Below are positions 14,284 through 52,524 of a stretch of 64,000 bases of DNA, piece by piece. The position numbers and the translations under genes are program-made. This DNA is from Eledone cirrhosa. Lineage: Eukaryota. The stretch spans positions 15,934,001 through 15,998,000 of the forward strand of contig OZ024766.1 in the NCBI GenBank assembly GCA_964016885.1, written 5' to 3'. The notes below the pieces were generated by a model. The model did not search any database, was not told the origin of the DNA, and saw nothing but the letters and a program-made list of their open reading frames with translations. Within the stretch, counting starts at the first letter, position 1; the number at the start of each line of letters is the position of its first letter.

Positions 14284-14737
14284 ATATATATATATATATA
14301 TATGTATGAGTGTATATGTCAGTGTGTAGAAATTTCTGTACATGAAAATGATTATCTTTATTCGTGTATATGTATGTGCATGTTTATATGTGTTCTTATA
14401 TACATGTGTGCACATCTTGATATATTTTCAGTGTCTGTTCTAGTTCTCAGAGTACAAATCCCACTGAGGTAAAGTTACTCCATGGAGCTTATTTTACGGG
14501 TGATATGGCGCATGTCTTTCTGGCATGACACCCATAATTTGTTATAGATTAATTTTATTTTAATTTATCTTAATTTTTGATATATATAAATACGGCCTCT
14601 GAATTGTAGTGCTAACTCTGTTGAAAGAACCTGACTGCTGTTTCTAGTTGTCAATAACCCTATTCACGCCACTGGGACGAAGCTGGTATGATGTGTGTAT
14701 TTTTAGTAGATACAGCACGTGTTACTGGTCAGTTACT

Positions 14738-16967
14738 TACTCCAGTGACTGCACCTTCTAGTCTCTTCTGCCAATGTCAGTTGTCATACAGGAGTTCATG
14801 GATGTCTTATTTAACTGACTGCTCCTTATAGTGCCTTCTTCCAATGTCAGTTGACATAAAGGTGTCCATGGCTGTCTTATTTAACTGGCTACTCCAGTGA
14901 TTGCTCCTTCTAGTCTCTTCTTCCAATGTCAGTTGTCATACAGGTGTCCATGGCTGTTTTATTTAACTGGCTACTCCAGTGACTGCTCCTTCTAGTCCCT
15001 TCTTCCAATGTCAGTTGTCATACAGGTGTCCATGGCTGTCTTATTTAAATGGCTACTCCAGTGACTGCTCCTTCTAGTCTCTCTTTCCAATGTCAGTTGT
15101 CATACAGGTGTCCATGGATGTCTTATTTAACCGACTGCTCCTTCTAGTCCCTTCTTCCATTGTCAGTTGTCATACAGGAGTCCATGGCTGTTTTATTTAA
15201 CTGGCTACTCCAGTGATTGCTCCTTCTAGTCCCTTCTTCCAATGTCAGTTGACATAAAGTTATCCATGGCTGTCTTATTTAACTGGCTACTCCAGTGATT
15301 GCTCCTTCTAGTCCCTTCTTCCAATGTCAGTTGACATAAAGTTATCCATGGCTGTCTTATTTAACTGGCTACTCCAGTGACTGCTCCTTTTAGTCCCTTC
15401 TTCCAATGTCAGTTGTCATACAGGAGTCCATGGCTGTCTTATTTAACAGGCTACTCCAGTGACTGCTCCTTCTAGTCCCTTCTTCCAATGTCAGTTGTCA
15501 TACAGGAGTCCATGGCTGTCTTATTTAACTGGCTACTCCAATGATTGCTCCTTCTAGTCTCTTCTTCCAATCTCAGTTGTCATACAGGTGTCCATGGCTG
15601 TCTTATTTAACTGGCTACTCCAGTGACTGCTCCTTCTAGTCCCTTCTTCCAATGTCAGTTGTCATACAGGTGTCCATGGCTGTCTTATTTAACTGGCTAC
15701 TCCAATGATTGCTCCTTCTAGTCTCTTCTTCCAATCTCAGTTGTCATACAGGTGTCCATGGCTGTCTTATTTAACTGGCTACTCCAGTGACTGCTCCTTC
15801 TAGTCCCTTCTTCCAATGTTAGTTGTCATACAGGAGTCCATGGCTGTCTTATTTAACTGGCTACTCCAATGATTGCTCCTTCTAGTCTCTTCTTCCAATC
15901 TCAGTTGTCATACAGGTGTCCATGGCTGTCTTATTTAACTGGCTACTCCAGTGACTGCTCCTTCTAGTCCCTTCTTCCAATGTTAGTTGTCATACAGGAG
16001 TCCATGGCTGACTTATTTAACTGGCTACTCCAGTGACTGCTCCTTCTAGTCCCTTCTTCCAATGTCAGTTGTCATACAGGAGTCCATGGCTGTCTTATTT
16101 AACTGGCTACTCCAGTGACTGCTCCTTCTAGTCCCTTCTTCCAATGTTAGTTGTCATACAGGAGTCCATGGCTGTCTTATTTAACTGGCTACTCCAGTGA
16201 CTGCTCCTTCTAGTCCCTTCTTCCAATGTCAGTTGTCATACAGGAGTCCATGGCTGTCTTATTTAACTGGCTACTCCGGTGACTGCTCCTTCTAGTCCCT
16301 TCTTCCAATGTCAGTTGTCATACAGGAGTCCATGGCTGTCTTATTTAACTGGCTACTCCAGTGATTGCTCCTTCTAGTCTCTTCTTCCAATGTCAGTTGT
16401 CATACAGGTGTCCATGGCTGACTTATTTAACTGGCTACTGCAGTGACTGCTCCTTCTAGTCTCTTCTTCCAATGTCAGTTGTCATACAGGTGTCCATGGC
16501 TGTCTTATTTAACTGGCTACTCCAGTGACTGCTCCTTTTAGTCCCTTCTTCCAAAGTCAGTTGTCATATAGATGTCCATGGCTGACTTATTTAACTGGCT
16601 ACTCCAATGACTACTCCTTCTAGTCCCTTCTTCCAATGTCAGTTGTCCTACAGGAGTCCATGACTGTCTTATTTAACTGGCTATTCCAGTGACTGCTCCT
16701 TCTAGTCTCTTCTTCCAATGTCAATTGTCATACAGGTGTCCATGGCTGTCTTATTTAACTGGCTACTCCAGATACTGCTCCTTCTAGTCTCTTCTTCCAA
16801 TATCAGTTGTCATACAGGTGTCCATGGCTGTCTTATTTAACTGGCTACTCCAGGGACTGCTCCTTCTAGTCCCTTCTTCCAATGTCAGTTGTCATACAGG
16901 AGTCCATGGCTGTCTTATTTAACTGGCTACTCCAGTGACTGCTCCTTCTTGTCTCTTCTTCCAATGT
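14738..16967. repeat. 82-bp minisatellite, about 27 copies
   Basis: Same unit as 6967-7514; left flank deleted (joined to gttactggtcagtt). Confidence 0.97.
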
Positions 16968-17381
16968 CAATTGCCATGCAGGAGTTGATGTTCTTTAGAT
17001 GCTTCTTGTTATTTGCTGCACTCTTCCAACAAATCACCTGAGATCCTCAAATGACGTTGGTCCTTGAACAATATGCAGAAGAGGCTGTATAGAAAACTCT
17101 CACTGTTGTTGGGGTGGTCATTGTAAACATGCCCAATAGCATCACTTGCCTTGACTTCATCACCTTCCACTAAATGACCCTGCTTCCTTTGATTCCAAGT
17201 CTTACAATAGGTCCAGGTGTAGTATTTTGGGATGTCAGCATATAGGAGGGATCGAACAAATTCTTTATTCTGGCAGTGTTTCAAAACAGCAGAGTAGTGT
17301 CAGGTGGTGCTGGTGTCAACTGATGAGCAGTGGTTTCAGTGAAGTACACACCCTGTCCATTTTCTATATGTATAGAGATAA
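16968..17381 (-). pseudogene. Helitron RepHel fragment, cassette 2
   Basis: KHCQNKEFVRSLLYADIPKYYTW...AIGHVYNDHP; paralogous to 7515-7932. Confidence 0.85.
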
Positions 17382-18336
17382 GGATGAAAAGCAAAGTTAA
17401 TCCCTCAGAGGTTAGCTTTGCCTTTCATCCCTACGGGGTCGATAACATAAAGTACCAGTAATGTACTGCCGTATTGCTGGCCTAGTGCCTAATGTAGAAA
17501 CAATTATTACGGGATCGATAAAATAAAGTACCAGTAATTCAATGATTTATTTACTGGCCTTGTGCCAAAAGTAGAAACAATTATCACCTTTCTTTTTAAT
17601 AAATCACATCACTATAGAATTAAATACGACTGGAAATGTGTGTGAAGGTACTAAATTATATCAGGGACTTTTCACGTTTGACACCGTCACGAGACTCGAA
17701 ACATTCGCTAAGACACCGAGTACCTGCTGTCTTCGTTATAACTTTAATTAATCTAATTATATCTTGTGTAACAATTATATATATATATATACACACACAC
17801 AATTTTAATTCCCCGACATCAGTCTTACACTGTCATATCTATTCTTACTTTACAATTGTGTCTACTAAGAGTTCCATTACAATCTGTAGTAGTAAAACTA
17901 CTATTTCACCAGAACATCTGCTATCAGTCATTTATAGACAATATATATATTTTAGACCACATATCAACCTAATATATATATATTTCCTATCTAATCTGTA
18001 GCTAAAGACATAAAGTCAGCCTCACTACTTCATTCTAACAAGATATCAATTGATGACTAAAGATGAAGAAGATACACCAACGTTAATGTCGTGAAATAAA
18101 GCTGATAACATTGAAACTTCTAATTTGATAACAAAGAGATTATTTCTTTGGTTGTTTAGTAACAACTAACAACACAATACATTGATTATATGTGAAGGAG
18201 GTAAGTTGACAAAGATTTACTTAATGTCTATATTAATGTGTGTAAATAATATAATTATTTTAACCCTACAACGACCAGTAATTAACCAGATTCCACTGTT
18301 ACATGTGATATAAAATATATTGTTATCATGACTGTC

Positions 18337-18785
18337 TTTATTATTTAAATTACCTCCGTCTATTTAATTATCTTGTTCACTACCTTACATTATAAAATAT
18401 AGTTTATATTTAGCTGTACCTTGTTGCTTTAAGTAAATTAAAGATATATTTATTATTTAAATTACCTCCGTCTATTTAATTATCTTGTTCACTACCTTAC
18501 ATTATAAAATATAGTTTATATTTAGCTGTACCTTGTTGTTGCTTTAAGTAAATTAAAGATATATTTATTATTTAAATTACCTCCGTCTATTTAATTATCT
18601 TGTTCACTACCTTACATTATAAAATATAGTTTATATTTAGCTGTACCTTGTTGCTTTAAGTAAATTAAAGATATATTTATTATTTAAATTACCTCCGTCT
18701 ATTTAATTATCTTGTTCACTACCTTACATTATAAAATATAGTTTATATTTAGCTGTACCTTGTTATTGCTTTAAGTAAATTAATA
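18337..18785. repeat. 112/115-bp intronic repeat, 4 copies
   Basis: aattacctcc at 18348, 18460, 18575 and 18687. Confidence 0.93.
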
Positions 18786-19113
18786 TTTTGTCTGTTTTAG
18801 TCTAAATCTCTTACAATTTAATTAACTTCATCTACTTATGGTTGAACATTACTTTATTGTGGGTTTCATTTCATTATAATTATGTTTGAGTTAGCCATCC
18901 AAGTAGGGGTTTAGTATCTGTATTTCAGGGCACTGCTTTGATGGTGAAGGGACATCTGTTGGTGTGGGATCTCGGTGGCTGTACATACTAAGGTTCTAAT
19001 ACTCTAAAGAGCTAGCTGAATAACCGTCTGATACATGTCTTGTATACAGGATCATAAATCCACGTATAGAAGAGCAGTCAGCAATGTCAGGATTAACATT
19101 CATTATAGTGAAG

Positions 19114-19289
19114 TGGCAGTATCGGTAGAGAGTCGGACACCGTGCTTTGAAGCACAGAGTTACGTCCCTTTATGATCTGAGTTCAAATCCCGCCGAGGTT
19201 AACTTTGCCTTACATCCATACCGGGTCGATAAAATAAAGTACCAGTAATGTACTGGGTAATTGCTGGCCTTGTGTTTAAAATAGAAACA
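19114..19289 (+). mobile_element. tRNA-derived SINE with 12-bp TSD
   Basis: TSD attatagtgaag at 19102-19113 and 19290-19301; B-box gagttcaaatcc. Confidence 0.85.
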
Positions 19290-20623
19290 ATTATAGTGAA
19301 GAATTTGGAGTGTAGTCTGGTGTCCACCAGGGCTCTGTTCTTAGCCCTCACTTAGTTATTATCGTCCTGCAGCCTATAACAGAGATGTTTAAGACTGGCT
19401 GCCCATGGGAACTCCTGTGTGCTCAGCAGGTCCTGAAGAATGCGATCATGTGCATTTTCCAGGTCTATAAAACGATAATATATACCTCTTAGCAATACTC
19501 CCACGATTTCTCAAAGACCTGCCACAGTGTGAATATTTGGTGGGTTATGTTGCACCCAGGGAGCAAACAGCACTGTCCATCAGCTAGCTCGGACTCGCTA
19601 CATCACTTTGTCAGAAACTTAGCATATACTTTACCAGGGAGGCTTAACAAGGTGATCCCTCTCTATTTGGAACAATCTCTCTTGTCTCCCTTTTTATAAA
19701 TTGGGATTATCACTCCCGATTGCCTTTGCTTGAGTGCCATTTCAGAGACCCAGGCCATCTGACACACGAGTCGGTCACATTTGAGCTCTTTAATTGCTCT
19801 TGTGACCTCAGCCTCCGAGAGATTAGTCACCGCTACCAGATTCACCTCATGTACATCCGAAGATGCTGTTGTGATCGGGTTTGGGAGATCAGCAAAGTAT
19901 TCTCTCCACCTCATGAGGATCCATCTCTCTGAAGAGAAGAGAACCCCAGATGCACTCATGGTTGCAGGTGTGGAGGAAGAATTCTTGTAACTAATTAAAA
20001 ACTAAAATAATTTGATTTTTCAATAAAAAGTTTCCAGGGTTTATAGATGTAAAATTTCCACTGTTAAATCTATCTCTGCTTCTTAAGTATTCTCTATTAT
20101 CTCATACTGTTTCTTTTTCATTTCAGAATATCAGATGACATTGGGATAAATTATTATTTTCAATCTTGGATACATCACCTCTATTTATCATCATTTGAAG
20201 ATTAAAACTTTTTAAACAGAACTTATATAACACTGTTTATATAAATCTATCAGAATTACTGTGAAAATTATTGTTTTCAATCTTGGATACATCACCTCTA
20301 TTTATCATCATTTGAAGATTAAAACTTTTTAAACAGAACTTATATAGCACTGTTTATATAAATCTATCAGAATTACTGTGATATATTTCCTCAGACCTGA
20401 GTTTAAAGACAAAATTCCTTTTCTTCACTGTGTGGTATATATATGAGAGATATATTTTGTATTTTAACTCAACTTCAATGACAAAGAAGTTTATATCATC
20501 TTCAGATATTAACTGAGATCATAATTGAGGGAATATAACAGAAGAAATATTTTTTAGGAATATAATGTAAAAAAATATTAAAGAATAACATCTGTAAATT
20601 CTGCCAAGGGAAGAAGAATTATT

Positions 20624-21565
20624 ATGGAAAATAAATTGAGTGAAAAGAAGATTAAATGTGAAACAATGTCTAAACATATGGCTATTACAGAAGAGATGTC
20701 AAAGGATAGAGGAGAGAAACCATATCACTGTGATGTCTGTGGTAAATCATTCTCTCTAAGTCGTATATTAATTTGTCACATACGTACCCATACAGGTGAC
20801 AAACCATATCACTGTGATATCTGTGGTAAATCATTCTCTCAAAGTAGTACCTTAACTACACACAAACATATACATACAGGAGACAAGCCTTATCACTGTG
20901 ATATCTGTGGTAAATCATTCTCTTTTAGTAGTAATTTAACTTCTCACATACGTACTCATACAGGAGACAAGCCTTATCACTGTGATATCTGTGGTAAATC
21001 ATTCTTTAATAATATTAGTTTAACTAGACACGAACGTACCCATTCAGGAGAGAAGCCATATCACTGTGATATCTGTGGTAAATCATTCTTTGTTAATAGT
21101 AATTTAACTAGACACAAAAGTATACATACAGGAGAGAGGCCATATCACTGTGATATCTGTGGTAAATCATTCTCTCAAAGTGGTCACTTAACTAGCCACA
21201 AACGTATACATACAGGAGAGAAGCCATATCTCTGTGATATCTGTGGTAAATCATTCTCTGATAGGAGTACCTTAACTAACCACAAACGTGTACATACAGG
21301 AGACAAGCCATATCACTGTGATATCTGTAGTAAATCATTCTCTGAAAGTGGTAACTTAACTAGCCACAAACGTATCCATACAGGAGAGAAGCCATATCAC
21401 TGTCATATCTGTGGTATATCATTCTCTCAAAGTAGTCACTTAACTAAGCACTTACGTATCCATACAGGAGACACGCCATACCACTGTGATATCTGTGGTA
21501 AATCATTCTCTCAATTAAGTAATTTAACTAAACACAAATATACCCATACAGGTAAGAAACCATAA
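20624..21565 (+). CDS. Poly-C2H2 zinc-finger protein, 10 fingers (gene 2)
   Basis: 313 aa = 33 + 10x28. Confidence 0.95.
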   Translation: MENKLSEKKIKCETMSKHMAITEEMSKDRGEKPYHCDVCGKSFSLSRILICHIRTHTGDKPYHCDICGKSFSQSSTLTTHKHIHTGDKPYHCDICGKSFSFSSNLTSHIRTHTGDKPYHCDICGKSFFNNISLTRHERTHSGEKPYHCDICGKSFFVNSNLTRHKSIHTGERPYHCDICGKSFSQSGHLTSHKRIHTGEKPYLCDICGKSFSDRSTLTNHKRVHTGDKPYHCDICSKSFSESGNLTSHKRIHTGEKPYHCHICGISFSQSSHLTKHLRIHTGDTPYHCDICGKSFSQLSNLTKHKYTHTGKKP

Positions 21566-21702
21566 CAAAGTCATATCTCATTGTCTCAAAATTGTAAATT
21601 AATTAGACACAAATACATTCATATGAGTGAGAAGCTATACCACCGTGATATTGTGGAGAAATTATTCTCTTGTATTGCTACATTAACTACATACAAACAT
21701 AA

Positions 21703-21864
<162 letters not shown>

Positions 21865-21940
21865 TAACATTTACAGAAAAGGAATCATATCATTGTGATA
21901 TCTGCAGTAAATCATTCTCTAAATGTGGCTTCACTACACA

Positions 21941-22250
21941 CTAACATATACAGGAGAGGAACCATATCACTGTGATGTCTGTGGTAAATCCTTCTCTAAA
22001 TGTTGTGGTTTCTCTAGACACTAACATATACAGGAGAGGAACCATATCACGGTGATGTCTGTGGTAAATCCTTCTCTAAAAGTTGTGGTTTCTCTAGACA
22101 CTAACATATACAGGAGAGGAACCATATCACTGTGATGTCTGTGGTAAATCATTCTCTAAATGTTGTGGCTTCACTAGACACTAACATATACAGGAGAGGA
22201 ACCATATCACTGTGATATCTGTGGTAAATCATTTTCTAAATGTTGTGGTA
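21941..22250. repeat. 80-bp tandem of a dead zinc finger, 4 copies (also about 30054-30363)
   Basis: ctaacatatacaggagaggaacc at 21941, 22021, 22101 and 22181. Confidence 0.9.
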
Positions 22251-23147
22251 CCAACATAAGGTTACTTAATGTAACACAAACACAATCAGACAAGATAAAA
22301 ACCATGTCACTCACCCAAAATAGTGCCACCAATGTTGTTAATGTCTTGAATAAAACTTGTTTGTTCTGAAATTATTCTCCTTTCATTTTATTTGTAGAAG
22401 TTGTAACCAAGACTTATGCTGACAAATCTGTATGGTACAGAATTTACAAACACTATATATATATATATATATATATATATGTGCCAAAACATCTATGATC
22501 TCGGTTTACAGCTGATGAAGGGTTTCTTCTCTCCTTTCATCCATATTACCATCTTAAACTTTGTTTACAGTAACCACACAACTCCTTTCGTTTCTTATGA
22601 TTTTATATATATATATAACAAAGGAGGTGTGGTAAAGAACCAGATGGACCATATACGCACCAGAGTACTCAATACTTACGGTAGTAGAGTGGGTAATAGG
22701 AAAATGTTTAACCCCGACGGCAGAGCTCAATCTGTTTCGACGGCTATTTCTGGAAACAGTCCAGAAATAACCATCGAAATGGCTTGAGCCCTGCCGTCGG
22801 GGTTAAACATTTTCCTATATATATATATATATATATGTATGAGTGTATATCTCAGTGTGTAGAAATTTCTGTCCATGAAAATGACTATCTTTATTTGTGT
22901 ATATATATGTGTGTATATGTATGTGTATGTTTATGTGTTCTTATATACGTGTGTGCACATCTTGATGTATTTTCAGTGTCTGTTCTAGTCCTCAGAGTAC
23001 AAATCCCACTGAGGTAAAGTTGCTTCGTTATTTTGAGGTCAATAAATGAAATACCAGTGAAATACTGGGGGTGTGGGGTTAATTCCTCTTCTTTGTCATT
23101 GTCTGTTTGTCTACTCTTCTCTTTCTCTGTATATATATATATATATA

Positions 23148-23336
23148 TCCAAAATTAAGATAAATAAAATTAATCTATATCAAATTATGGGTGTCTGCCA
23201 GAAAGACAGGCGCCATATCACTCGTAAAATAAGGTCCATGGAGCATATTTCATGAGCGATATGGCGCCTGTCTTATTGGCATGACACCCATGATACGATT
23301 CAGATTAATTTCATTTTAATTTATCTTAATTTTGGA
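23148..23336. repeat. Palindrome B, diverged copy (also 31263-31451)
   Basis: tccaaaattaagataaa...tccatgga...tttatcttaattttgga between (TA)n tracts. Confidence 0.88.
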
Positions 23337-23777
23337 TATATATATATATAAATAGGGCCTCTTAATTGTAGAGCTAACTCTGTTGAAAGGACCTGACTGC
23401 TGTTTCTAGTTGTCAATAACCCTATTCACGCAACTGGGACGAAGCTGGTATGATGTGTGTATTTTTAGTAGATACAGCACGTGTTACTGGTCAGTCGCTG
23501 ATTTGAACTTGATGCGTAAACACAGATGGTTGGACTTCTTCCTTGTTGAGAATCCAAGATCTGGCTACTGTCGTTTACCAATCGATTAATTGGTGAAATA
23601 TATTTCTTTAATGGAATATATACAAGGAAGATTAATCATTTTCTAAGGTATCTATTTTTGAAGTTCTAGTTAAACTTTATTTAGTTACCTACCTAGCTAT
23701 GTGTGCTTACACACTTTTACAAATTATCCCCTGTGATTGTTTCATATGTTTATTTATATGTCAATCAATTTCTAGTT

Positions 23778-23815
<38 letters not shown>

Positions 23816-24171
23816 CGTGGAAAAGTAAAATATAGCAGAACAGACCGTTAAAAGATGTTTATTGAAAATAGCACCTATGTAATGAAGACATGACAAATTG
23901 TCCTCGCGCTCTCTCTATATATAGAGAAAAGGTGAAGTTGGAAATAGCACGGAAAATATATTTTAGGGTCTGTTTTTCTGTTATTTATCTTTTGGTTCGT
24001 CAAAGTGACATTATTGAAAATATGGGAGGGACATCATCATTCATCATCATTTCATTTCACGTCCGCTTTCTCCCTGCTTGCAAGGGTGGGACGGGAACTG
24101 ATTCTGGCTTGATATCTACAGATGGATGCCCGTCTTAACGCCAACCTCACTTACAGTGAGTGCTGGGTACT

Positions 24172-25492
24172 GTCATGTTGAATGTTTTTCATGATGTTGT
24201 GGTCGGCATATTTCTGGTCATCCACCAGTCAAGGTTTATTTTCATCAACAAACTTACGCAACACTTCAATATCATGGTTTGTCTCCTGAAAAACTGATTG
24301 TATTACCTCAATTTCTTCTGGTTCTGGCATCCCGCATTGCTATTCATTGCTGGAATTCAATGAGGAGGTTGCACAGAGATTGATTGTAAATCCTGGAGGT
24401 AGATTCCACATAAATATTGCTATAACATCTTTGGGCTAGGTGTAGATAGTCGTCTGACATATTGTTTTTGTACTCCTGCCAGGGTAGATGAGATTTATTC
24501 CAGATGCTGTGAGTATAGTAGCAAACAACTGTCTTATTTAACTGGCTACTCCAGTGACTGCTCCTTCTAGTCCCTTCTTCCAATGTCAGTTGTCATACAG
24601 GTGTCCATGGCTGTCTTATTTAACTGGCTACTCCAGTGACTGCTCCTTTTAGTCCCTTCTTCCAAAGTCAGTTGTCATATAGGTGTCCATGGCTGACTTA
24701 TTTAACTGGCTACTCCAATGACTACTCCTTCTAGTCCCTTCTTCCAATGTCAGTTGTCCTACAGGAGTCCATGACTGTCTTATTTAACTGGCTATTCCAG
24801 TGACTGCTCCTTCTAGTCTCTTCTTCCAATGTCAATTGTCATACAGGTGTCCATGGCTGTCTTATTTAACTGGCTACTCCAGATACTGCTCCTTCTAGTC
24901 TCTTCTTCCAATATCAGTTGTCATACAGGTGTCCATGGCTGTCTTATTTAACTGGCTACTCCAGGGACTGCTCCTTCTAGTCCCTTCTTCCAATGTCAGT
25001 TGTCATACAGGAGTCCATGGCTGTCTTATTTAACTGGCTACTCCAGTGACTGCTCCTTCTTGTCTCTTCTTCCAATGTCAATTGCCATGCAGGAGTTGAT
25101 GTTCTTTAGATGCTTCTTGTTATTTGCTGCACTCTTCCAACAAATCACCTGAGATCCTCAAATGACGTTGGTCCTTGAACAATATGCAGAAGAGGCTGTA
25201 TAGAAAACTCTCACTGTTGTTGGGGTGGTCATTGTAAACATGCCCAATAGCATCACTTGCCTTGACTTCATCACCTTCCACTAAATGACCCTGCTTCCTT
25301 TGATTCCAAGTCTTACAATAGGTCCAGGTGTAGTATTTTGGGATGTCAGCATATAGGAGGGATCGAACAAATTCTTTATTCTGGCAGTGTTTCAAAACAG
25401 CAGAGTAGTGTCAGGTGGTGCTGGTGTCAACTGATGAGCAGTGGTTTCAGTGAAGTACACACCCTGTCCATTTTCTATATGTATAGAGATAA
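24172..25492 (-). pseudogene. Helitron RepHel fragment with internal minisatellite, cassette 3
   Basis: Paralogous to 6610-7932. Confidence 0.85.
24531..25078. repeat. 82-bp minisatellite, about 6.7 copies (duplication junction)
   Basis: Variant pattern from 24613 onward reproduces 16502-16967. Confidence 0.96.
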
Positions 25493-26311
25493 GGATGAAA
25501 AGCAAAGTTAATCCCTCAGAGGTTAGCTTTGCCTTTCATCCCTACGGGGTCGATAACATAAAGTACCAGTAATGTACTGCCGTATTGCTGGCCTAGTGCC
25601 TAATGTAGAAACAATTATTACGGGATCGATAAAATAAAGTACCAGTAATTCAATGATTTATTTACTGGCCTTGTGCCAAAAGTAGAAACAATTATCACCT
25701 TTCTTTTTAATAAATCACATCACTATAGAATTAAATACGACTGGAAATGTGTGTGAAGGTACTAAATTATATCAGGGACTTTTCACGTTTGACACCGTCA
25801 CGAGACTCGAAACATTCGCTAAGACACCGAGTACCTGCTGTCTTCGTTATAACTTTAATTAATCTAATTATATCTTGTGTAACAATTATATATATATATA
25901 TACACACACACAATTTTAATTCCCCGACATCAGTCTTACACTGTCATATCTATTCTTACTTTACAATTGTGTCTACTAAGAGTTCCATTACAATCTGTAG
26001 TAGTAAAACTACTATTTCACCAGAACATCTGCTATCAGTCATTTATAGACAATATATATATTTTAGACCACATATCAACCTAATATATATATATTTCCTA
26101 TCTAATCTGTAGCTAAAGACATAAAGTCAGCCTCACTACTTCATTCTAACAAGATATCAATTGATGACTAAAGATGAAGAAGATACACCAACGTTAATGT
26201 CGTGAAATAAAGCTGATAACATTGAAACTTCTAATTTGATAACAAAGAGATTATTTCTTTGGTTGTTTAGTAACAACTAACAACACAATACATTGATTAT
26301 ATGTGAAGGAG

Positions 26312-28239
26312 GTAAGTTGACAAAGATTTACTTAATGTCTATATTAATGTGTGTAAATAATATAATTATTTTAACCCTACAACGACCAGTAATTAACCAG
26401 ATTCCACTGTTACATGTGATATAAAATATATTGTTATCATGACTGTCTTTATTATTTAAATTACCTCCGTCTATTTAATTATCTTGTTCACTACCTTACA
26501 TTATAAAATATAGTTTATATTTAGCTGTACCTTGTTGCTTTAAGTAAATTAAAGATATATTTATTATTTAAATTACCTCCGTCTATTTAATTATCTTGTT
26601 CACTACCTTACATTATAAAATATAGTTTATATTTAGCTGTACCTTGTTGTTGCTTTAAGTAAATTAAAGATATATTTATTATTTAAATTACCTCCGTCTA
26701 TTTAATTATCTTGTTCACTACCTTACATTATAAAATATAGTTTATATTTAGCTGTACCTTGTTGCTTTAAGTAAATTAAAGATATATTTATTATTTAAAT
26801 TACCTCCGTCTATTTAATTATCTTGTTCACTACCTTACATTATAAAATATAGTTTATATTTAGCTGTACCTTGTTATTGCTTTAAGTAAATTAATATTTT
26901 GTCTGTTTTAGTCTAAATCTCTTACAATTTAATTAACTTCATCTACTTATGGTTGAACATTACTTTATTGTGGGTTTCATTTCATTATAATTATGTTTGA
27001 GTTAGCCATCCAAGTAGGGGTTTAGTATCTGTATTTCAGGGCACTGCTTTGATGGTGAAGGGACATCTGTTGGTGTGGGATCTCGGTGGCTGTACATACT
27101 AAGGTTCTAATACTCTAAAGAGCTAGCTGAATAACCGTCTGATACATGTCTTGTATACAGGATCATAAATCCACGTATAGAAGAGCAGTCAGCAATGTCA
27201 GGATTAACATTCATTATAGTGAAGTGGCAGTATCGGTAGAGAGTCGGACACCGTGCTTTGAAGCACAGAGTTACGTCCCTTTATGATCTGAGTTCAAATC
27301 CCGCCGAGGTTAACTTTGCCTTACATCCATACCGGGTCGATAAAATAAAGTACCAGTAATGTACTGGGTAATTGCTGGCCTTGTGTTTAAAATAGAAACA
27401 ATTATAGTGAAGAATTTGGAGTGTAGTCTGGTGTCCACCAGGGCTCTGTTCTTAGCCCTCACTTAGTTATTATCGTCCTGCAGCCTATAACAGAGATGTT
27501 TAAGACTGGCTGCCCATGGGAACTCCTGTGTGCTCAGCAGGTCCTGAAGAATGCGATCATGTGCATTTTCCAGGTCTATAAAACGATAATATATACCTCT
27601 TAGCAATACTCCCACGATTTCTCAAAGACCTGCCACAGTGTGAATATTTGGTGGGTTATGTTGCACCCAGGGAGCAAACAGCACTTTCCATCAGCTAGCT
27701 CGGACTCGCTACATCACTTTGTCAGAAACTTAGCATATACTTTACCAGGGAGGCTTAACAAGGTGATCCCTCTCTATTTGGAACAATCTCTCTTGTCTCC
27801 CTTTTTATAAATTGGGATTATCACTCCCGATTGCCTTTGCTTGAGTGCCATTTCAGAGACCCAGGCCATCTGACACACATGAGTCGGTCACATTTGAGCT
27901 CTTTAATTGCTCTTGTGACCTCAGCCTCCGAGAGATTAGTCACCGCTACCAGATTCACCTCATGTACATCCGAAGATGCTGTTGTGATCGGGTTTGGGAG
28001 ATCAGCAAAGTATTCTCTCCACCTCATGAGGATCCATCTCTCTGAAGAGAAGAGAACCCCAGATGCACTCATGGTTGCAGGTGTGGAGGAAGAATTCTTG
28101 TAACTAATTAAAAACTAAAATAATTTGATTTTTCAATAAAAAGTTTCCAGGGTTTATAGATGTAAAATTTCCACTGTTAAATCTATCTCTGCTTCTTAAG
28201 TATTCTCTATTATCTCATACTGTTTCTTTTTCATTTCAG
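26312..28239 (+). other. Putative 5'-UTR intron of ZNF gene 3 (4 copies of the 115-bp repeat, RT fragments, SINE)
   Basis: GAG|GTAAGT ... tttcatttcAG. Confidence 0.7.
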
Positions 28240-28736
28240 AATATCAGATGACATTGGGATAAATTATTATTTTCAATCTTGGATACATCACCTCTATTTA
28301 TCATCATTTGAAGATTAAAACTTTTTAAACAGAACTTATATAACACTGTTTATATAAATCTATCAGAATTACTGTGAAAATTATTGTTTTCAATCTTGGA
28401 TACATCACCTCTATTTATCATCATTTGAAGATTAAAACTTTTTAAACAGAACTTATATAGCACTGTTTATATAAATCTATCAGAATTACTGTGATATATT
28501 TCCTCAGACCTGAGTTTAAAGACAAAATTCCTTTTCTTCACTGTGTGGTATATATATGAGAGATATATTTTGTATTTTAACTCAACTTCAATGACAAAGA
28601 AGTTTATATCATCTTCAGATATTAACTGAGATCATAATTGAGGGAATATAACAGAAGAAATATTTTTTAGGAATATAATGTAAAAAAATATTAAAGAATA
28701 ACATCTGTAAATTCTGCCAAGGGAAGAAGAATTATT

Positions 28737-29678
28737 ATGGAAAATAAATTGAGTGAAAAGAAGATTAAATGTGAAACAATGTCTAAACATATGGCTATTA
28801 CAGAAGAGATGTCAAAGGATAGAGGAGAGAAACCATATCACTGTGATGTCTGTGGTAAATCATTCTCTCTAAGTCGTATATTAATTTGTCACATACGTAC
28901 CCATACAGGTGACAAACCATATCACTGTGATATCTGTGGTAAATCATTCTCTCAAAGTAGTACCTTAACTACACACAAACATATACATACAGGAGACAAG
29001 CCTTATCACTGTGATATCTGTGGTAAATCATTCTCTTTTAGTAGTAATTTAACTTCTCACATACGTACTCATACAGGAGACAAGCCTTATCACTGTGATA
29101 TCTGTGGTAAATCATTCTTTAATAATATTAGTTTAACTAGACACGAACGTACCCATTCAGGAGAGAAGCCATATCACTGTGATATCTGTGGTAAATCATT
29201 CTTTGTTAATAGTAATTTAACTAGACACAAAAGTATACATACAGGAGAGAGGCCATATCACTGTGATATCTGTGGTAAATCATTCTCTCAAAGTGGTCAC
29301 TTAACTAGCCACAAACGTATACATACAGGAGAGAAGCCATATCTCTGTGATATCTGTGGTAAATCATTCTCTGATAGGAGTACCTTAACTAACCACAAAC
29401 GTGTACATACAGGAGACAAGCCATATCACTGTGATATCTGTAGTAAATCATTCTCTGAAAGTGGTAACTTAACTAGCCACAAACGTATCCATACAGGAGA
29501 GAAGCCATATCACTGTCATATCTGTGGTATATCATTCTCTCAAAGTAGTCACTTAACTAAGCACTTACGTATCCATACAGGAGACACGCCATACCACTGT
29601 GATATCTGTGGTAAATCATTCTCTCAATTAAGTAATTTAACTAAACACAAATATACCCATACAGGTAAGAAACCATAA
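28737..29678 (+). CDS. Poly-C2H2 zinc-finger protein, 10 fingers (gene 3; protein identical to gene 2)
   Basis: Translation identical to 20624..21565. Confidence 0.93.
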   Translation: MENKLSEKKIKCETMSKHMAITEEMSKDRGEKPYHCDVCGKSFSLSRILICHIRTHTGDKPYHCDICGKSFSQSSTLTTHKHIHTGDKPYHCDICGKSFSFSSNLTSHIRTHTGDKPYHCDICGKSFFNNISLTRHERTHSGEKPYHCDICGKSFFVNSNLTRHKSIHTGERPYHCDICGKSFSQSGHLTSHKRIHTGEKPYLCDICGKSFSDRSTLTNHKRVHTGDKPYHCDICSKSFSESGNLTSHKRIHTGEKPYHCHICGISFSQSSHLTKHLRIHTGDTPYHCDICGKSFSQLSNLTKHKYTHTGKKP

Positions 29679-29815
29679 CAAAGTCATATCTCATTGTCTC
29701 AAAATTGTAAATTAATTAGACACAAATACATTCATATGAGTGAGAAGCTATACCACCGTGATATTGTGGAGAAATTATTCTCTTGTATTGCTACATTAAC
29801 TACATACAAACATAA

Positions 29816-29977
<162 letters not shown>

Positions 29978-31892
29978 TAACATTTACAGAAAAGGAATCA
30001 TATCATTGTGATATCTGCAGTAAATCATTCTCTAAATGTGGCTTCACTACACACTAACATATACAGGAGAGGAACCATATCACTGTGATGTCTGTGGTAA
30101 ATCCTTCTCTAAATGTTGTGGTTTCTCTAGACACTAACATATACAGGAGAGGAACCATATCACGGTGATGTCTGTGGTAAATCCTTCTCTAAAAGTTGTG
30201 GTTTCTCTAGACACTAACATATACAGGAGAGGAACCATATCACTGTGATGTCTGTGGTAAATCATTCTCTAAATGTTGTGGCTTCACTAGACACTAACAT
30301 ATACAGGAGAGGAACCATATCACTGTGATATCTGTGGTAAATCATTTTCTAAATGTTGTGGTACCAACATAAGGTTACTTAATGTAACACAAACACAATC
30401 AGACAAGATAAAAACCATGTCACTCACCCAAAATAGTGCCACCAATGTTGTTAATGTCTTGAATAAAACTTGTTTGTTCTGAAATTATTCTCCTTTCATT
30501 TTATTTGTAGAAGTTGTAACCAAGACTTATGCTGACAAATCTGTATGGTACAGAATTTACAAACACTATATATATATATATATATATATATATGTGCCAA
30601 AACATCTATGATCTCGGTTTACAGCTGATGAAGGGTTTCTTCTCTCCTTTCATCCATATTACCATCTTAAACTTTGTTTACAGTAACCACACAACTCCTT
30701 TCGTTTCTTATGATTTTATATATATATATAACAAAGGAGGTGTGGTAAAGAACCAGATGGACCATATACGCACCAGAGTACTCAATACTTACGGTAGTAG
30801 AGTGGGTAATAGGAAAATGTTTAACCCCGACGGCAGAGCTCAATCTGTTTCGACGGCTATTTCTGGAAACAGTCCAGAAATAACCATCGAAATGGCTTGA
30901 GCCCTGCCGTCGGGGTTAAACATTTTCCTATATATATATATATATATATGTATGAGTGTATATCTCAGTGTGTAGAAATTTCTGTCCATGAAAATGACTA
31001 TCTTTATTTGTGTATATATATGTGTGTATATGTATGTGTATGTTTATGTGTTCTTATATACGTGTGTGCACATCTTGATGTATTTTCAGTGTCTGTTCTA
31101 GTCCTCAGAGTACAAATCCCACTGAGGTAAAGTTGCTTCGTTATTTTGAGGTCAATAAATGAAATACCAGTGAAATACTGGGGGTGTGGGGTTAATTCCT
31201 CTTCTTTGTCATTGTCTGTTTGTCTACTCTTCTCTTTCTCTGTATATATATATATATATATATCCAAAATTAAGATAAATAAAATTAATCTATATCAAAT
31301 TATGGGTGTCTGCCAGAAAGACAGGCGCCATATCACTCGTAAAATAAGGTCCATGGAGCATATTTCATGAGCGATATGGCGCCTGTCTTATTGGCATGAC
31401 ACCCATGATACGATTCAGATTAATTTCATTTTAATTTATCTTAATTTTGGATATATATATATAAAAATAGGGCCTCTTAATTGTAGAGCTAACTCTGTTG
31501 AAAGGACCTGACTGCTGTTTCTAGTTGTCAATAACCCTATTCACGCAACTGGGACGAAGCTGGTATGATGTGTGTATTTTTAGTAGATACAGCACGTGTT
31601 ACTGGTCAGTCGCTGATTTGAACTTGATGCGTAAACACAGATGGTTGGACTTCTTCCTTGTTGAGAATCCAAGATCTGGCTACTGTCGTTTACCAATCGA
31701 TTAATTGGTGAAATATATTTCTTTAATGGAATATATACAAGGAAGATTAATCATTTTCTAAGGTATCTATTTTTGAAGTTCTAGTTAAACTTTATTTAGT
31801 TACCTACCTAGCTATGTGTGCTTACACACTTTTACAAATTATCCCCTGTGATTGTTTCATATGTTTATTTATATGTCAATCAATTTCTAGTT

Positions 31893-31930
<38 letters not shown>

Positions 31931-32286
31931 CGTGGAAAAGTAAAATATAGCAGAACAGACCGTTAAAAGATGTTTATTGAAAATAGCACCTATGTAATGA
32001 AGACATGACAAATTGTCCTCGCGCTCTCTCTATATATAGAGAAAAGGTGAAGTTGGAAATAGCACGGAAAATATATTTTAGGGTCTGTTTTTCTGTTATT
32101 TATCTTTTGGTTCGTCAAAGTGACATTATTGAAAATGTGGGAGGGACATCATCATTCATCATCATTTCATTTCACGTCCGCTTTCTCCCTGCTTGCAAGG
32201 GTGGGACGGGAACTGATTCTGGCTTGATATCTACAGATGGATGCCCGTCTTAACGCCAACCTCACTTACAGTGAGTGCTGGGTACT

Positions 32287-35200
32287 GTCATGTTGAATGT
32301 TTTTCATGATGTTGTGGTCGGCATATTTCTGGTCATCCACCAGTCAAGGTTTATTTTCATCAACAAACTTACGCAACACTTCAATATCATGGTTTGTCTC
32401 CTGAAAAACTGATTGTATTACCTCAATTTCTTCTGGTTCTGGCATCCCGCATTGCTATTCATTGCTGGAATTCAATGAGGAGGTTGCACAGAGATTGATT
32501 GTAAATCCTGGAGGTAGATTCCACATAAATATTGCTATAACATCTTTGGGCTAGGTGTAGATAGTCGTCTGACATATTGTTTTTGTACTCCTGCCAGGGT
32601 AGATGAGATTTATTCCAGATGCTGTGAGTATAGTAGCAAACAACTGTCTTATTTAACTGGCTACTCCAGTGACTGCTCCTTCTAGTCCCTTCTTCCAATG
32701 TCAGTTGTCATACAGGTGTCCATGGCTGTCTTATTTAACTGGCTACTCCAGTGACTGCTCCTTCTAATCCCTTCTTCCAATGTTAGTTGTCATACAGGAG
32801 TCCATGGCTGTCTTATTTAACTGGCCACTCCAGTGACTGCTCCTTCTAGTCTCTTCTTCCAATGTCAGTTGTCATACAGGTGTCCATGGCTGTCTTACTT
32901 AACTGGCTACTCCAGTGACTGCTCCTTCTAGTCTCTTCTTCCAATGTCAGTTGTCATACAGATGCCCATGGCTGTCTTATTTAACTGGCCACTCCAGTGA
33001 CTGCTCCTTCTAGTCTCTTCTTCCAATGTCAGTTGTCATACAGGTGTCCATGGCTGTCTTACTTAACTGGCTACTCCAGTGACTGCTCCTTCTAGTCTCT
33101 TCTTCCAATGTCAGTTGTCATACAGGTGTCCATGGCTGTCTTATTTAACTGGCTACTCCAGTAACTGTTCCTTCTAGTCTCTTCTTCCAATGTCAGTTGT
33201 CATACAGGTGTCCATGGCTGTCTTATTTAACTGGCCACTCCAGTGACTGCTCCCTCTAGTCCCTTCTTCCAATGTCAGTTGTCATACAGGAGTCCATGGC
33301 TGTCTTATTTAACTGGCTACTCCAGTGACTGCTCCTTCTAGTCCCTTCTTCCAATGTCAGTTGTCATACAGGAGTCCATGGATGTCTTACTTAACTGGCT
33401 ACTCCAGTGACTGCTCCTTCTAGTCTCTTCTTCCAATGTCAGTTGTCATACAGGAGTCCATGGCTGTCTTATTTACCTGGCTACTCCAGTGACTGCTCCT
33501 TCTAGTCCCTTCTTCCAATGTCAGTTGTCATACAGGTGTCCATGGCTGTCTTATTTAACTGGCTACTCCAGTGTCTGCTCCTTCTAGTCCCTTCCTCCAA
33601 TGTCAGTTGTCATACAGGTGTCCATGGCTGTCTTATTTAACTGGCTACTCCAGTGACTGCTCCCTCTAGTCCCTTCTTCCAATGTCAGTTGTCATACAGG
33701 TGTCCATGGCTGTCTTATTTAACTGTCCACTCCAGTGACTGCTCCTTCTAGTCTCTCTTTCCAATGTCAGTTGTCATACAGGAGTCCATGGCTGTCTTAT
33801 TTAACTGGCTACTCCAGTGACTGCTCCTTCTAGTCCATTCTTCCAATGTCAGTTGTCATACAGGAGTCCATGGCTGTCTTATTTAACTGGCTACTCCCGT
33901 GACTGCTCCTTGTAGTCTCTTCTTCCAATGTCAGTTGTCATACAGGAGTCCATGGCTGTCTTATTTAACTGGCTACTCTAGTGACTGCTCCTAGTCTCTT
34001 CCAATGTCAGTTGTCATACAGGTGTCCATGGCTATCTTATTTAACTGGCTACTCCAGTGACTGCTCCTTCTAGTCCCTTCTTCCAATGTTAGTTGTCATA
34101 CAGGTGCCCATGGCTGTCTTATTTAACTGGCCACTCCAGTGACTGCTCCTTCTAGTCTCTTCTTCCAATGTCAGTTGTCATACAGGTGTCCATGGCTGTC
34201 TTATTTAACTGGCTACTCCAGTGACTGCTCCTTCTAGTCCCTTCTTCCAATGTCAGTTGTCATACAGGTGTCCATGGCTGTCTTATTTAACTGGCTACTC
34301 CAGTGACTGCTCCTTCTAGTCCCTTCTTCCAATGTTAGTTGTCATACAGGTGCCCATGGCTGTCTTATTTAACTGGCCACTCCAGTGACTGCTCCTTCTA
34401 GTCTCTTCTTCCAATGTCAGTTGTCATACAGGTGTCCATGGCTGTCTTATTTAACTGGCTACTCCAGTAACTGTTCCTTCTAGTCTCTTCTTCCAATGTC
34501 AGTTGTCATACAGGTGTCCATGGCTGTCTTATTTAACTGGCCACTCCAGTGACTGCTCCCTCTAGTCCCTTCTTCCAATGTCAGTTGTCATACAGGAGTC
34601 CATGGCTGTCTTATTTAACTGGCTACTCCAGTGACTGCTCCTTCTAGTCCCTTCTTCCAATGTCAGTTGTCATACAGGAGTCCATGGATGTCTTACTTAA
34701 CTGGCTACTCCAGTGACTGCTCCTTCTAGTCTCTTCTTCCAATGTCAGTTGTCATACAGGAGTCCATGGCTGTCTTATTTACCTGGCTACTCCAGTGACT
34801 GCTCCTTCTAGTCCCTTCTTCCAATGTCAGTTGTCATACAGGTGTCCATGGCTGTCTTATTTAACTGGCTACTCCAGTGTCTGCTCCTTCTAGTCCCTTC
34901 CTCCAATGTCAGTTGTCATACAGGTGTCCATGGCTGTCTTATTTAACTGGCTACTCCAGTGACTGCTCCCTCTAGTCCCTTCTTCCAATGTCAGTTGTCA
35001 TACAGGTGTCCATGGCTGTCTTATTTAACTGTCCACTCCAGTGACTGCTCCTTCTAGTCTCTCTTTCCAATGTCAGTTGTCATACAGGAGTCCATGGCTG
35101 TCTTATTTAACTGGCTACTCCAGTGACTGCTCCTTCTAGTCCATTCTTCCAATGTCAGTTGTCATACAGGAGTCCATGGCTGTCTTATTTAACTGGCTAC

Positions 35201-37775
35201 TCCCGTGACTGCTCCTTGTAGTCTCTTCTTCCAATGTCAGTTGTCATACAGGAGTCCATGGCTGTCTTATTTAACTGGCTACTCTAGTGACTGCTCCTAG
35301 TCTCTTCCAATGTCAGTTGTCATACAGGTGTCCATGGCTATCTTATTTAACTGGCTACTCCAGTGACTGCTCCTTCTAGTCCCTTCTTCCAATGTTAGTT
35401 GTCATACAGGTGCCCATGGCTGTCTTATTTAACTGGCCACTCCAGTGACTGCTCCTTCTAGTCTCTTCTTCCAATGTCAGTTGTCATACAGGTGTCCATG
35501 GCTGTCTTATTTAACTGGCTACTCCAGTGACTGCTCCTTCTAGTCCCTTCTTCCAATGTCAGTTGTCATACAGGTGTCCATGGCTGTCTTATTTAACTGG
35601 CTACTCCAGTGACTGCTCCTTCTAGTCCCTTCTTCCAATGTTAGTTGTCATACAGGTGCCCATGGCTGTCTTATTTAACTGGCCACTCCAGTGACTGCTC
35701 CTTCTAGTCTCTTCTTCCAATGTCAGTTGTCATACAGGTGTCCATGGCTGTCTTACTTAACTGGCTACTCCAGTGACTGCTCCTTCTAGTCTCTTCTTCC
35801 AATGTCAGTTGTCATACAGGTGTCCATGGCTGTCTTATTTAACTGGCCACTCCAGTGACTGCTCCCTCTAGTCCCTTCTTCCAATGTCAGTTGTCATCCA
35901 GGAGTCCATGGCTGTCTTATTTAACTGGCTACTCCAGTGACTGCTCCTTCTAGTCCCTTCTTCCAATGTCAGTTGTCATACAGGAGTCCATGGATGTCTT
36001 ACTTAACTGGCTACTCCAGTGACTGCTCCTTCTAGTCTCTTCTTCCAATGTCAGTTGTCATACAGGAGTCCATGGCTGTCTTATTTACCTGGCTACTCCA
36101 GTGACTGCTCCCGCTAGTCCCTTCTTCCAATGTCAATTGTCATACAGGTGTCCATGGCTGTCTTATTTAACCGGCTACTCCAGTGTCTGCTCCTTCTAGT
36201 CCCTTCTTCCAATGTCAGTTGTCATACAGGTGTCCATGGCTGTCTTATTTAACTGGCTACTCCAGTGACTGCTCCTTCTAGTCCCTTCTTCCAATGTCAG
36301 TTGTCATACAGGTGTCCATGGCTGTCTTATTTAACTGTCCACTCCAGTGACTGCTCCTTCTAGTCTCTCTTTCCAATGTCAGTTGTCATACAGGAGTCCA
36401 TGGCTGTCTTATTTAACTGGCTACTCCAGTGACTGCTCCTTCTAGTCCCTTCTTCCAATGTCAGTTGTCATACAGGAGTCCATGGCTGTCTTATTTACCT
36501 GGCTACTCCAGTGACTGCTCCTTGTAGTCCCTTCTTCCAATGTCAGTTGTCATACAGGTGTCCATGGCTGTCTTATTTAACTGGCTACTCCCGTGACTGC
36601 TCCTTGTAGTCTCTTCTTCCAATGTCAGTTGTCATACAGGAGTCCATGGCTGTCTTATTGAACTGGCTACTCTAGTGACTGCTCCTAGTCTCTTCCAATG
36701 TCAGTTGTCATACAGGTGTCCATGGCTGTCTTATATAACTAGCTACTCCAGTGATTGCTCTTTCTAGTCTATTCTTCCAATGTCAGTTGTCATACAGGAG
36801 TCCATGGCTGTATTATATAACTGGCTACTCCAGTGACTGTTCCTTCTAGTCTCTTCTTCCAATGTCAGTTGTCATACAGGAGTCCATGGCTGTCTTATAT
36901 AACTGGCTACTCCAGTGACTGTTCCTTCTAGTCTCTTCTTCCAATGTCAGTTGTCATACAGGAGTCCATGGCTGTCTTATTTAACTGGCTACTGCAGTGA
37001 CTGCTCCTTCTAGTCTCTTCTTCCAATGTCAGTTGTCATACAGGAGTCCATGGCTGTCTTATTTAACTGGCTACTGCAGTGACTGTTCCTTCTAGTCTCT
37101 TCTTCCAATGTCAGTTGTCATACAGGAGTCCATGGCTGTCTTATATAACTGGCTACTCCAGTGACTGTTCCTTCTAGTCTCTTCTTCCAATGTCAGTTGT
37201 CATACAGGAGTCCATGGCTGTCTTATTTAACTGGCTACTGCAGTGACTGCTCCTTCTAGTCTCTTCTTCCAATGTCAGTTGTCATACAGGTGTCCATGAC
37301 TGTCTTATTTAACTGGCTACTCCAGTGACTGCTCCTTCTTGTCTCTTCTTCCAATGTCGATTGCCATGCAGGAGTTGATGTTCTTTAGATACTTCTCGGT
37401 ATGTGCTGCACTCTCCCTCCAAATCACCTGAGATCCTCAAATGACGTTGGTCCTTGAACAATATGCAGAAGTGGCTGTAAATAAAAACTCTCTCTGTTGT
37501 TGGGGTGGTCATTGTAAACATGCCCAATAGCATCACTTGCCTTGACTTCATCACCTTCCACTAAATGACCCTGCTTCCTTTGATTCCAAGTCTTACAATT
37601 GGTCCATGTGTAGTATTTTGGGATGTCAGCATATAGGAGGGATCGAACAATTTCTTTATTCTGGCAGTGTTTCAAAAAAGCAGTTAGAGTAGTGTCAGGT
37701 GGTGCTGGTGTCAACTGATGAGCAGTGGTTTCAGTGAAGTACACACTCTGTCCATTTTCTATATGTATAGAGATA
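32287..37775 (-). pseudogene. Helitron RepHel fragment split by a 4.7-kb minisatellite, cassette 4
   Basis: ORFs 37424..37789, 37309..37554 and 32459..32698 carry the same motifs on either side of the array. Confidence 0.85.
32646..37357. repeat. 82-bp minisatellite, about 57 copies with higher-order structure
   Basis: Same unit; a shortened variant monomer recurs at 33971, 35277 and 36665. Confidence 0.97.
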
Positions 37776-43646: not shown

Positions 43647-44101
43647 TATATATATATATAAATAGGGCCTCTTAATTGTAGAGCTAACTCTGTTGAAAGA
43701 ACCTGACTGCTGTTTCTAGTTGTCAATAACCCAATTCACGCCACTGGGACGAAGCTGGTATGATGTGTGTATATTTAGTAGATACAGCACGTGTTACTGG
43801 TCAGTCGCTGATTTGAACTTGATGCGTAAACACAGATGGTTGGACTTCTTCCTTGTTGAGAATCCAAGATCTGGCTACTGTCGTTTACCAATCGATTAAT
43901 TGGTGAAATATATTTCTTTAATGGAATATATACAAGGAAGATTAATCGTTTTCTAAGGTATCTATTTTTGAAGTTCTAGTTAAACTTTATTTAGTTACCT
44001 ACCTAGCTATGTGTGCTTACACACATTTACAAATTATCCCCTGTGATTGTTTCATATGTTTATTTATATGTCAATCAATTTCTAGTTGATATATATATAT
44101 A

Positions 44102-50502: not shown

Positions 50503-52524
50503 ATGGAAAATAAATTGAGTGAAAAGATTAAATGTGAAACAATGTCTAAAGATATGGCTATTACAGAAGAGATGTCAAAGGATAGAGGAGAGAAGTCATA
50601 TCACTGTGATGTGTGTGGTAAATCATTCTCTCGAAGTAGTAGATTAACTAGCCACAAACGTACACATACAGGAGACAAGCCTTATCACTGTGATATCTGT
50701 GGTAAATCATTCTCTTTTAGTAGTAATTTAACTTCTCACATACGTACTCATACAGGAGACAAGCCTTATAACTGTGATATCTGTGGTAAATCATTCTTTA
50801 ATAATATTAGTTTAACTAGACACGAACGTACCCATTCAGGAGAGAAGCCATATCACTGTGGTAAATCATTCTTTGTTAATAGTAATTTAACTAGACACAA
50901 AAGTATACATACAGGAGAGAAGCCATATCACTGTGATATCTGTGGTAAATCATTCTCTCGAAGAAGTTACTTCACTAGCCACAAACGTACCCATACAGGA
51001 GACAAGCCATATCACTGTGATATCTGTGGTAAATCATTCTCTGATAGTAGTACCTTAACTGGCCACAAACGTATACATACAGGAGACAAGCCATATCACT
51101 GTGATATCTGTGGTAATTCATTCTATAATAGTAGTACCTTAACTGGCCACAAACGTACACATACAGGAGACAAGCCATATCACTGTGATATCTGTGGTAA
51201 ATCATTCTCTTTTAGTAGTAATTTAACTTCTCACATACGTACTCATACAGGAGACAAGCCTTATCACTGTGATATCTGTGGTAAATCATTCTTTGTTAAT
51301 AGTAATTTAACTAGACACAAAATTATACATACAGGAAAGAAGCCATATCACTGTGATATCTGTGGTAAATCATTCTCTCGAAGAAGTTACTTAACTGGCC
51401 ACAAACGGACACATACAGGAGAGAAGCCATATCACTGTGATATCTGTGGTAAATCATTCTCTGATAGTAGTACCTTAACTGGCCACAAACGTATACATAC
51501 AGGAGAGAAGCCATATAACTGTGATATCTGTTGTAAATCTTTCTTTAATAATATTAGTTTAACTAGACACGAACATACCCATTCAGGAGAGAAGCCATAT
51601 CACTGTGATATCTGTGGTAAATCATTCTTTGTTAATAGTAATTTAACTAGACACAAAAGTATACATACAAGAGAGAAGCCATATCACTGTGATATCTGTG
51701 GTAAATCATTCTCTGAAAGTGGTACCTTAACTAGCCACAAACGTATCCATACAGGAGAGAAGCCATACCACTGTGATATCTGTGGTAAATCATTCTCTCA
51801 AAGTAGTACCTTAACTAGACACAAACGTATACATACAGGAGAGAAGCCATATAACTGTGATGTCTGTGGTAAATCTTTTTCTGAAAGTGGTACCTTAACT
51901 AGACACAAACGTATACATACAGTAGAGAAGTCGTATCACTGTGATATCTGTGGTAAATCATTCTTTGTTAATAGTAATTTAATAAGACACAAACGTAAAC
52001 ATACAGGAGACAAGCCATATCACTGTGATATCTGTGGTAAATCATTCTTTGTTAATAGTAAATTAACTAGACACAAACGTATACATAAAGTAGACAAGCC
52101 ATACCACTGTGATATCTGTGGTAAATCATTCTCTGAAAGTGGTACCTTAACTAGACACAAACGTACACATACAGGAGACAAGCCATATCGCTGTGATATC
52201 TGTGGTAAATCATTCTCTGTTAGTGGTAGCTTAACTAACCACAGACGTATACATACAAGAGAGAAGCCATATCACTGTGATACCTGTGGTAAATCATTCT
52301 CTCAAAGTCCTGGCTTAACTAGCCACAAACGTACTCATACAGGAGAGAAGCCATATCACTGTGATATCTGTGGTAAATCATTCTCTGAAAGTGGTAACTT
52401 AACTAGCCACAAACGTATACATGCAGGAGAGAAGCCATATCACTGTGATATCTGTGGTAAATCATTCTCTCAATTTAGTAGTTTAACTAGACACAAATAT
52501 ACCCATACAGGTAAAAAACCATAA
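50503..52524 (+). CDS. Poly-C2H2 zinc-finger protein, 23 finger repeats (gene 5; finger 4 lacks one Cys)
   Basis: 673 aa = 32 + 23x28 - 3; in-frame 9-bp deletion gives YHCGKSF. Confidence 0.95.

Follow-up and report, generated by a model that had tools for sequence, protein, structure and literature searches.

Near-identical tandem zinc-finger gene units in Eledone cirrhosa that meet inside a Helitron-derived 82-bp minisatellite

The zinc-finger cluster and its near-identical units

The 64,000-nucleotide stretch of Eledone cirrhosa DNA considered here (GCA_964016885.1, contig OZ024766.1, positions 15,934,001 to 15,998,000, hereafter the window) carries a cluster of six open C2H2 zinc-finger (ZNF) reading frames, all on the plus strand and with 10-22 fingers each. 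Upstream of each frame lies one array of an 82-bp minisatellite, together with smaller arrays of 77-, 115- and 117-bp repeats. Two neighbouring units of this cluster are almost the same sequence: a first copy of the duplicated block at 16463-24573, both ends of which can slide rightward by up to 75 bp, is followed by a second at 24574-32688, whose right end may reach 32763. The window contains no N and the junction between the copies no gap.

These limits arise from a BLAST comparison of the window with itself and from a global base-by-base alignment. In the former, the top match outside the arrays pairs 16418-25093 with 24529-33208 (8,680 bp, 99.5%) and stands far above all others; in the latter, near-identity is confined to 16463-24648 against 24574-32763. 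The copies follow each other head to tail with a period of 8,111-8,115 bp and an identity of 99.9%, and homologous repeats with a shared orientation stand on either side of them, as is typical of a tandem duplication by non-allelic homologous recombination (NAHR). Over about 8.2 kb, the alignment reveals four substitutions (16572/24683, 19575/27686, 23349/31464 and 24022/32137) and two indels, both of a dinucleotide (AT at 19768/27879, TA at 23130/31243), none of the differences being a homopolymer indel. Derived states are found on both copies, namely the AT deletion at 19768 on copy 1, and T at 27686 and A at 31464 on copy 2. A first-pass annotation of the letters had already described two near-identical blocks of about 8.1 kb encoding identical proteins; the three changes that it named were all recovered in the alignment, and its breakpoints at 16502, 24613 and 32727 fall within the 75-bp uncertainty interval, which at the junction is 24574-24648.

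Each copy holds one ZNF frame on the plus strand, at 20624-21565 (313 amino acids, 10 fingers) and at 28737-29678, and the identity of the two proteins extends to the coding DNA itself. With its poly-C2H2 array, its TGEKP-type linkers, its octopus-like leader and its place in a tandem cluster, this frame has the features of the octopus-type C2H2-ZNF genes. Its N-terminal leader can be aligned, starting at residue 1, with a protein of Octopus bimaculoides (17 identical residues out of 39), and among the 120 matches listed the motif EKKIKCE occurs in one, which is that same protein. Since the best-scoring matches of the frame overall are generic ZNFs of other animals, the octopus-type label rests on the leader. 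No KRAB domain was found in the tested frame among the best 25 of 44 Pfam families, and none of the five proteins looked up has an exact match in the sequence collection.

The duplicated block is one unit of an older octopus-type tandem ZNF cluster. The units are 95-96% identical across kilobases; in the aligned 5' part, the other units diverge by 2.6-4.0%, and the two block copies differ in one of 3,755 columns. On an overall divergence of 0.05%, the splits between the remaining units are about 50-80 times as old as this duplication.

The 82-bp arrays and the junction

The junction between the two copies lies within an array of the minisatellite. When the six 82-bp arrays of the window, which cover 19% of it, were split into monomers and compared monomer by monomer, the junction array (A2, 24529-25096, seven monomers) was seen to combine monomer 1 of the downstream array (A3, 32644-37375, 58 monomers) with monomers 22-27 of the upstream one (A1, 14738-16985, 27 scored monomers), in that order. 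Over monomers 2-6, the junction array differs from A1 monomers 22-26 at one of 410 bases, compared to at least 21 differences for every other block of A1 or of the other arrays, and its match to these pieces of A1 and A3 is not chance similarity. In the same line, the first-pass annotation had noticed that the junction array begins like the downstream one and then continues with private variants of the last upstream monomers; the beginning holds, with a start at 24529 instead of 24531, and all five named variants are present.

The switch from downstream-array to upstream-array type takes place within a stretch of 75 bp of perfect identity at 24574-24648, itself part of a register of 565 bp at 93.5% identity. 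The two array types are joined in register and without inserted bases, giving a chimeric repeat of the kind left by NAHR. The switching monomer carries three of the four A1-type variants and none of the three A3-type variants, and no blended zone is visible. At 16572/24683, 35 bp past the switch, the junction array has the consensus base and A1 a variant, a mismatch that may reflect a later mutation, an allelic difference or patchy conversion.

The arrays also bear traces of other changes. A3 contains an exact internal duplication of 1,377 bp (33073-35755, with a 16-monomer period of 1,306 bp), which shows that the arrays turn over fast, and an older, diverged copy of this duplication is seen at about 35748-36725. 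A second array of seven monomers occurs naturally at 6965. Deletion junctions form the left edges of A1 (14730-14740), where a few bases are inserted, and of the further array A4 (44095-44105), which directly abuts an (AT)n run; both deletions, ending inside an array, removed the 3' end of the unit together with the left part of the Helitron remnant described below.

A Helitron origin for the 82-bp monomer

A broken remnant of Helitron RepHel coding sequence runs across the junction array on the minus strand (24172-25490, identified by homology search with tblastn), and the matching part beside A1 in copy 1 lies at 16910-17379 on the same strand. Beside the downstream array, a minus-strand frame of 131 amino acids matches seven longer proteins (best E 4e-33), all seven of which carry PF14214 (Helitron_like_N) and/or PF05970 (PIF1). 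Such a remnant is present at all six 82-bp arrays, with tblastn similarity to the RepHel protein P0001 beside five of them. At the junction array the order is collinear: residues 508-641 of P0001 are matched on the right, about 642-669 within the monomer, and the next residues on the left as far as 24172.

Because this collinear similarity runs on both sides of the array and through the monomer itself, the minisatellite grew out of an 82-bp segment of RepHel coding sequence within a Helitron remnant that is itself dead. What is left covers the central part of RepHel, from residue 508 to about 725 of P0001 and 765-1053 of a second protein, P0002. Pfam returned no family for four Helitron open reading frames, which the homology search did identify, and no hairpin with a CTRR end was found on the minus strand, which is that of the element, between 16985 and 24528. 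Minisatellites born from transposons are already known (PMC6947457); what this analysis adds is the recognition of the 82-bp monomer as a segment of Helitron RepHel coding sequence.

Unequal exchange and its rivals

From left to right, the locus reads as a whole A1, the block, an A3 head joined to an A1 tail, the block again and a whole A3, which is what an exchange between A3 of one molecule and A1 of another would be expected to leave. The block was therefore probably duplicated by unequal homologous exchange between its two flanking arrays. In such an event, A3 of one chromatid or homologue would have paired out of register with A1 of another before the exchange, the reciprocal product being a molecule devoid of the block and carrying one long array made of an A1 head and an A3 tail. 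The hybrid array would probably have been trimmed later, or the parent arrays would have been shorter at the time, so that the crossover may initially have taken place elsewhere than at the visible junction. What few differences the copies show would represent later mutations or allelic differences between two donor chromosomes, and the Helitron remnant would have served as a source of repeats only, not as a mobile carrier. The substrate for such an exchange is plentiful, since A1 and A3 have 60 exact common runs of at least 75 bp, and trimming after the event is plausible from the fast turnover of the arrays and the natural seven-monomer array at 6965. If real, the junction, which is placed within 75 bp of a transposon-derived minisatellite, shows in concrete terms one way in which a new gene copy can arise.

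Several points nevertheless weigh against unequal exchange. Hybrids of at most seven monomers would result from only 21 of 1,566 equally weighted registers (1.3%, or 1.9% if A3 had 42 monomers). In the visible register, no more than 45-120 bp of homology lies to the left of the switch, and the 75-bp perfect tract is shorter than the 300-500 bp quoted as the requirement for human meiotic NAHR in PMC2583991, which also records NAHR on matches of less than 50 bp between nearby repeats for alpha-globin. Besides, as 19% of the window consists of arrays, one junction inside one of them does not alone make a strong case for a preference. NAHR between two 82-bp arrays had been proposed in the first-pass annotation: its homology-directed junction, in register, perfectly identical and devoid of inserted bases, stood up to scrutiny, whereas the crossover itself is inferred and is the likeliest reading, even if a random-register crossover between arrays of 27 and 58 monomers would normally leave a much longer hybrid.

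Further points of this kind concern the assembly. Four of nine read runs were mapped across the junction (23850-30500; X1-X3, with shares below 0.2, were left out), and no read that spans the junction or singles it out was found among them. The X4 and X5 contigs carry letters of other paralogs of the window at 34 of the 40 other-letter rows listed (a further 57 rows lie outside this listing), and because of these paralog letters they are collapsed family consensus sequences, whose depth is not a copy number. Restriction-site-associated DNA (RAD) reads have a depth of 0 in the junction bin 24516-24737; they come mostly from interspersed repeats, 94% of them running on into unlike sequence. In favour of a real event, the indirect signs are the gapless junction, the lack of homopolymer differences, the derived changes on both copies, the open frames and the fine resolution of the arrays, although two of these signs would fit two alleles too. 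The six open ZNF frames and the preservation of the exact 1,377-bp duplication in A3 suggest that the assembly is accurate.

It is in this context that a false duplication has to be considered, in which a read of one haplotype that ends a little way into A3 would have been connected by the assembler to one of the other haplotype that begins in the A1 tail, the two copies being alleles. A short overlap-type join of this sort would give exactly the short seven-monomer hybrid; a divergence of 0.05% with derived changes on both copies is what alleles of a low-diversity animal would show, and the mapped reads lend the junction no support. On the other side, no N gap is present, the switching monomer passes to A1-type variants without blending, and a short natural array of seven monomers does exist at 6965. 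Moreover, the 8.1-kb block and the 565-bp junction array are shorter than common long reads, and harder repeats nearby were presumably resolved. Finally, the heterozygosity of about 1.2% given for squid in PMC9068888 would, if applicable here, be far above 0.05%. A false duplication is judged unlikely, though not negligible.

Somewhat less likely still is one-ended replication, by break-induced replication or template switch, in which a fork broken just inside A3 would have resumed synthesis on the sister chromatid, primed at the tail of A1, and recopied the block. Short homology is enough for this process, in keeping with the 45-120 bp left of the switch, the short hybrid array would arise without a second step, and tandem duplications are known to arise by template switching (PMC2583991). 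However, its product would be the same as that of a crossover, neither a templated insertion nor a second switch is seen, and an intrachromosomal origin would place all six differences after the duplication, leaving time enough for array trimming too.

The short hybrid would also be explained by two successive steps, in the form of a larger duplication by crossover in the unique sequence of two units (U1 paired with U4), followed by an array-to-array deletion of the chimeric middle unit. The identity of 95-96% over kilobases between units would permit the first step, and deletions ending in arrays did happen at A1 and A4. Nevertheless, two events would be required within the same short time, and no intermediate could be traced in the window, which makes this scenario very improbable. 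As for rolling-circle replication of a Helitron that would have carried the ZNF gene along as cargo while copying the unit, it is hardly credible despite the RepHel remnant at each 82-bp array and the satellite-like arrays carried by oyster Helentrons (PMC7492417): the junction lies inside a broken coding remnant and not at an element end, the central part of RepHel alone is there, and the duplicated unit shows no hairpin and CTRR end on the strand of the element.

Arrays as exchange sites in the cluster

Unequal exchange between arrays, if accepted for this block, raises the question of whether the arrays act as exchange sites throughout the cluster. Besides the main event, seven large indels other than variation in tandem repeat number were counted by eye, one of which borders another tandem array. 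Only two of their 14 ends (two indels, one end each) fall in 82-bp arrays, which, compared to the 19% of bases occupied by these, is not an enrichment. The 5' alignment of five units contains 34 informative sites, the splits of which are mixed and form no blocks, so that no older crossover could be mapped from them. A preference for arrays as exchange sites is not shown by one window, and a single event does not show that exchange between arrays is the dominant route.

It is doubtful that a Helitron-derived 82-bp minisatellite would be the preferred exchange site driving ZNF gene birth and loss cluster-wide, with the order of its monomers recording past exchanges. If this were true, the 82-bp array would be the counterpart of the beta-satellite of the human 19p12 cluster, and satellite-driven expansion would become testable across haplotypes. 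Provided that the junction is real, its monomer variants offer a marker system for tracing other such events.

At the level of single fingers, the same finger bodies recur in units that are not sisters: one, for instance, is present in U2 and U3, twice in U5 and also in U6, and recurring bodies are found in the frames at 20624-21565, 50503-52524 and 61287-62900. This recurrence suggests that exchange among the paralogs may also take place finger by finger.

Comparison with known systems

The human 19p12 ZNF cluster reportedly has the same organisation of tandem C2H2 genes, each with a satellite of similar monomer size; its beta-satellite is said to have been tied to the cluster by Eichler in 1998 and to promote duplication. 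By contrast, the monomer here comes from 82 bp of Helitron coding sequence, and private monomer variants place one junction within 75 bp. In octopus, Albertin in 2015 reportedly found tandem repeats of 70-90 bp to be enriched near C2H2 genes and drew the parallel with beta-satellite; the 84-bp period of the fingers may account for part of these repeats. The idea that ZNF clusters grow in tandem in association with satellites has been put forward before, and the present locus is a well-resolved instance of a known route of gene-family growth, not a new mechanism.

Octopus genomes contain some 1,800-2,300 C2H2 genes (PMC6279123), and the locus resembles the octopus and coleoid C2H2-ZNF expansions by its clustered poly-finger genes and its leader similar to an Octopus bimaculoides protein. 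As far as the passages considered in PMC9068888, PMC12513265 and PMC6279123 go, cephalopod papers on this expansion give no breakpoint-level mechanism, and neither "recombination" nor "helitron" occurs in PMC12513265. For mammals, the accepted view is that clustered C2H2 genes multiply by tandem duplication (PMC2443715). The number of ZNFs has been linked to transposon load (Wells 2023). A search of titles and abstract beginnings, with most subscription papers and supplements outside its reach, found none that places a Helitron-derived minisatellite where an octopus ZNF duplication is joined.

Two further systems share elements with this locus. In the sea urchin Sp185/333 genes, tandem repeats likewise lie at the edges of near-identical duplications and deletions, and mispairing with unequal crossing-over has been proposed (PMC5103432); however, those repeats are GA and GAT microsatellites around immune genes, whereas the repeat here is an 82-bp minisatellite with variants from which the junction can be read. 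The Cg_HINE elements of the Pacific oyster, also a mollusc, contain a tandem array inside an element of the Helitron superfamily, but are non-autonomous mobile elements with central repeats (PMC7492417). In E. cirrhosa, the monomer derives from RepHel coding sequence, within a remnant that has no detected ends and has spread with the gene unit.

Other features of the window

Within the block, a 112/115-bp tandem array of 3.9 repeats is found in each copy (18337-18783 and 26448-26894), as well as a 117-bp tandem pair (20148-20381 and 28261-28494), which is identical in both. An inverted-repeat structure noticed by eye between two (TA)n runs at 23150-23337 is possibly a small non-autonomous element. 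Every ZNF frame closes with the same TGKKP followed by a stop, and then continues into degenerate, frameshifted fingers with an 80-bp period (21566-22248 and the equivalent positions of the other units). Finally, an open frame of 1,024 codons on the plus strand at 2254-5328, with endonuclease, reverse transcriptase and PHD-finger matches, is apparently an intact non-LTR (long terminal repeat) retrotransposon, inserted at the (TA)n run near 1283 of a cluster unit.

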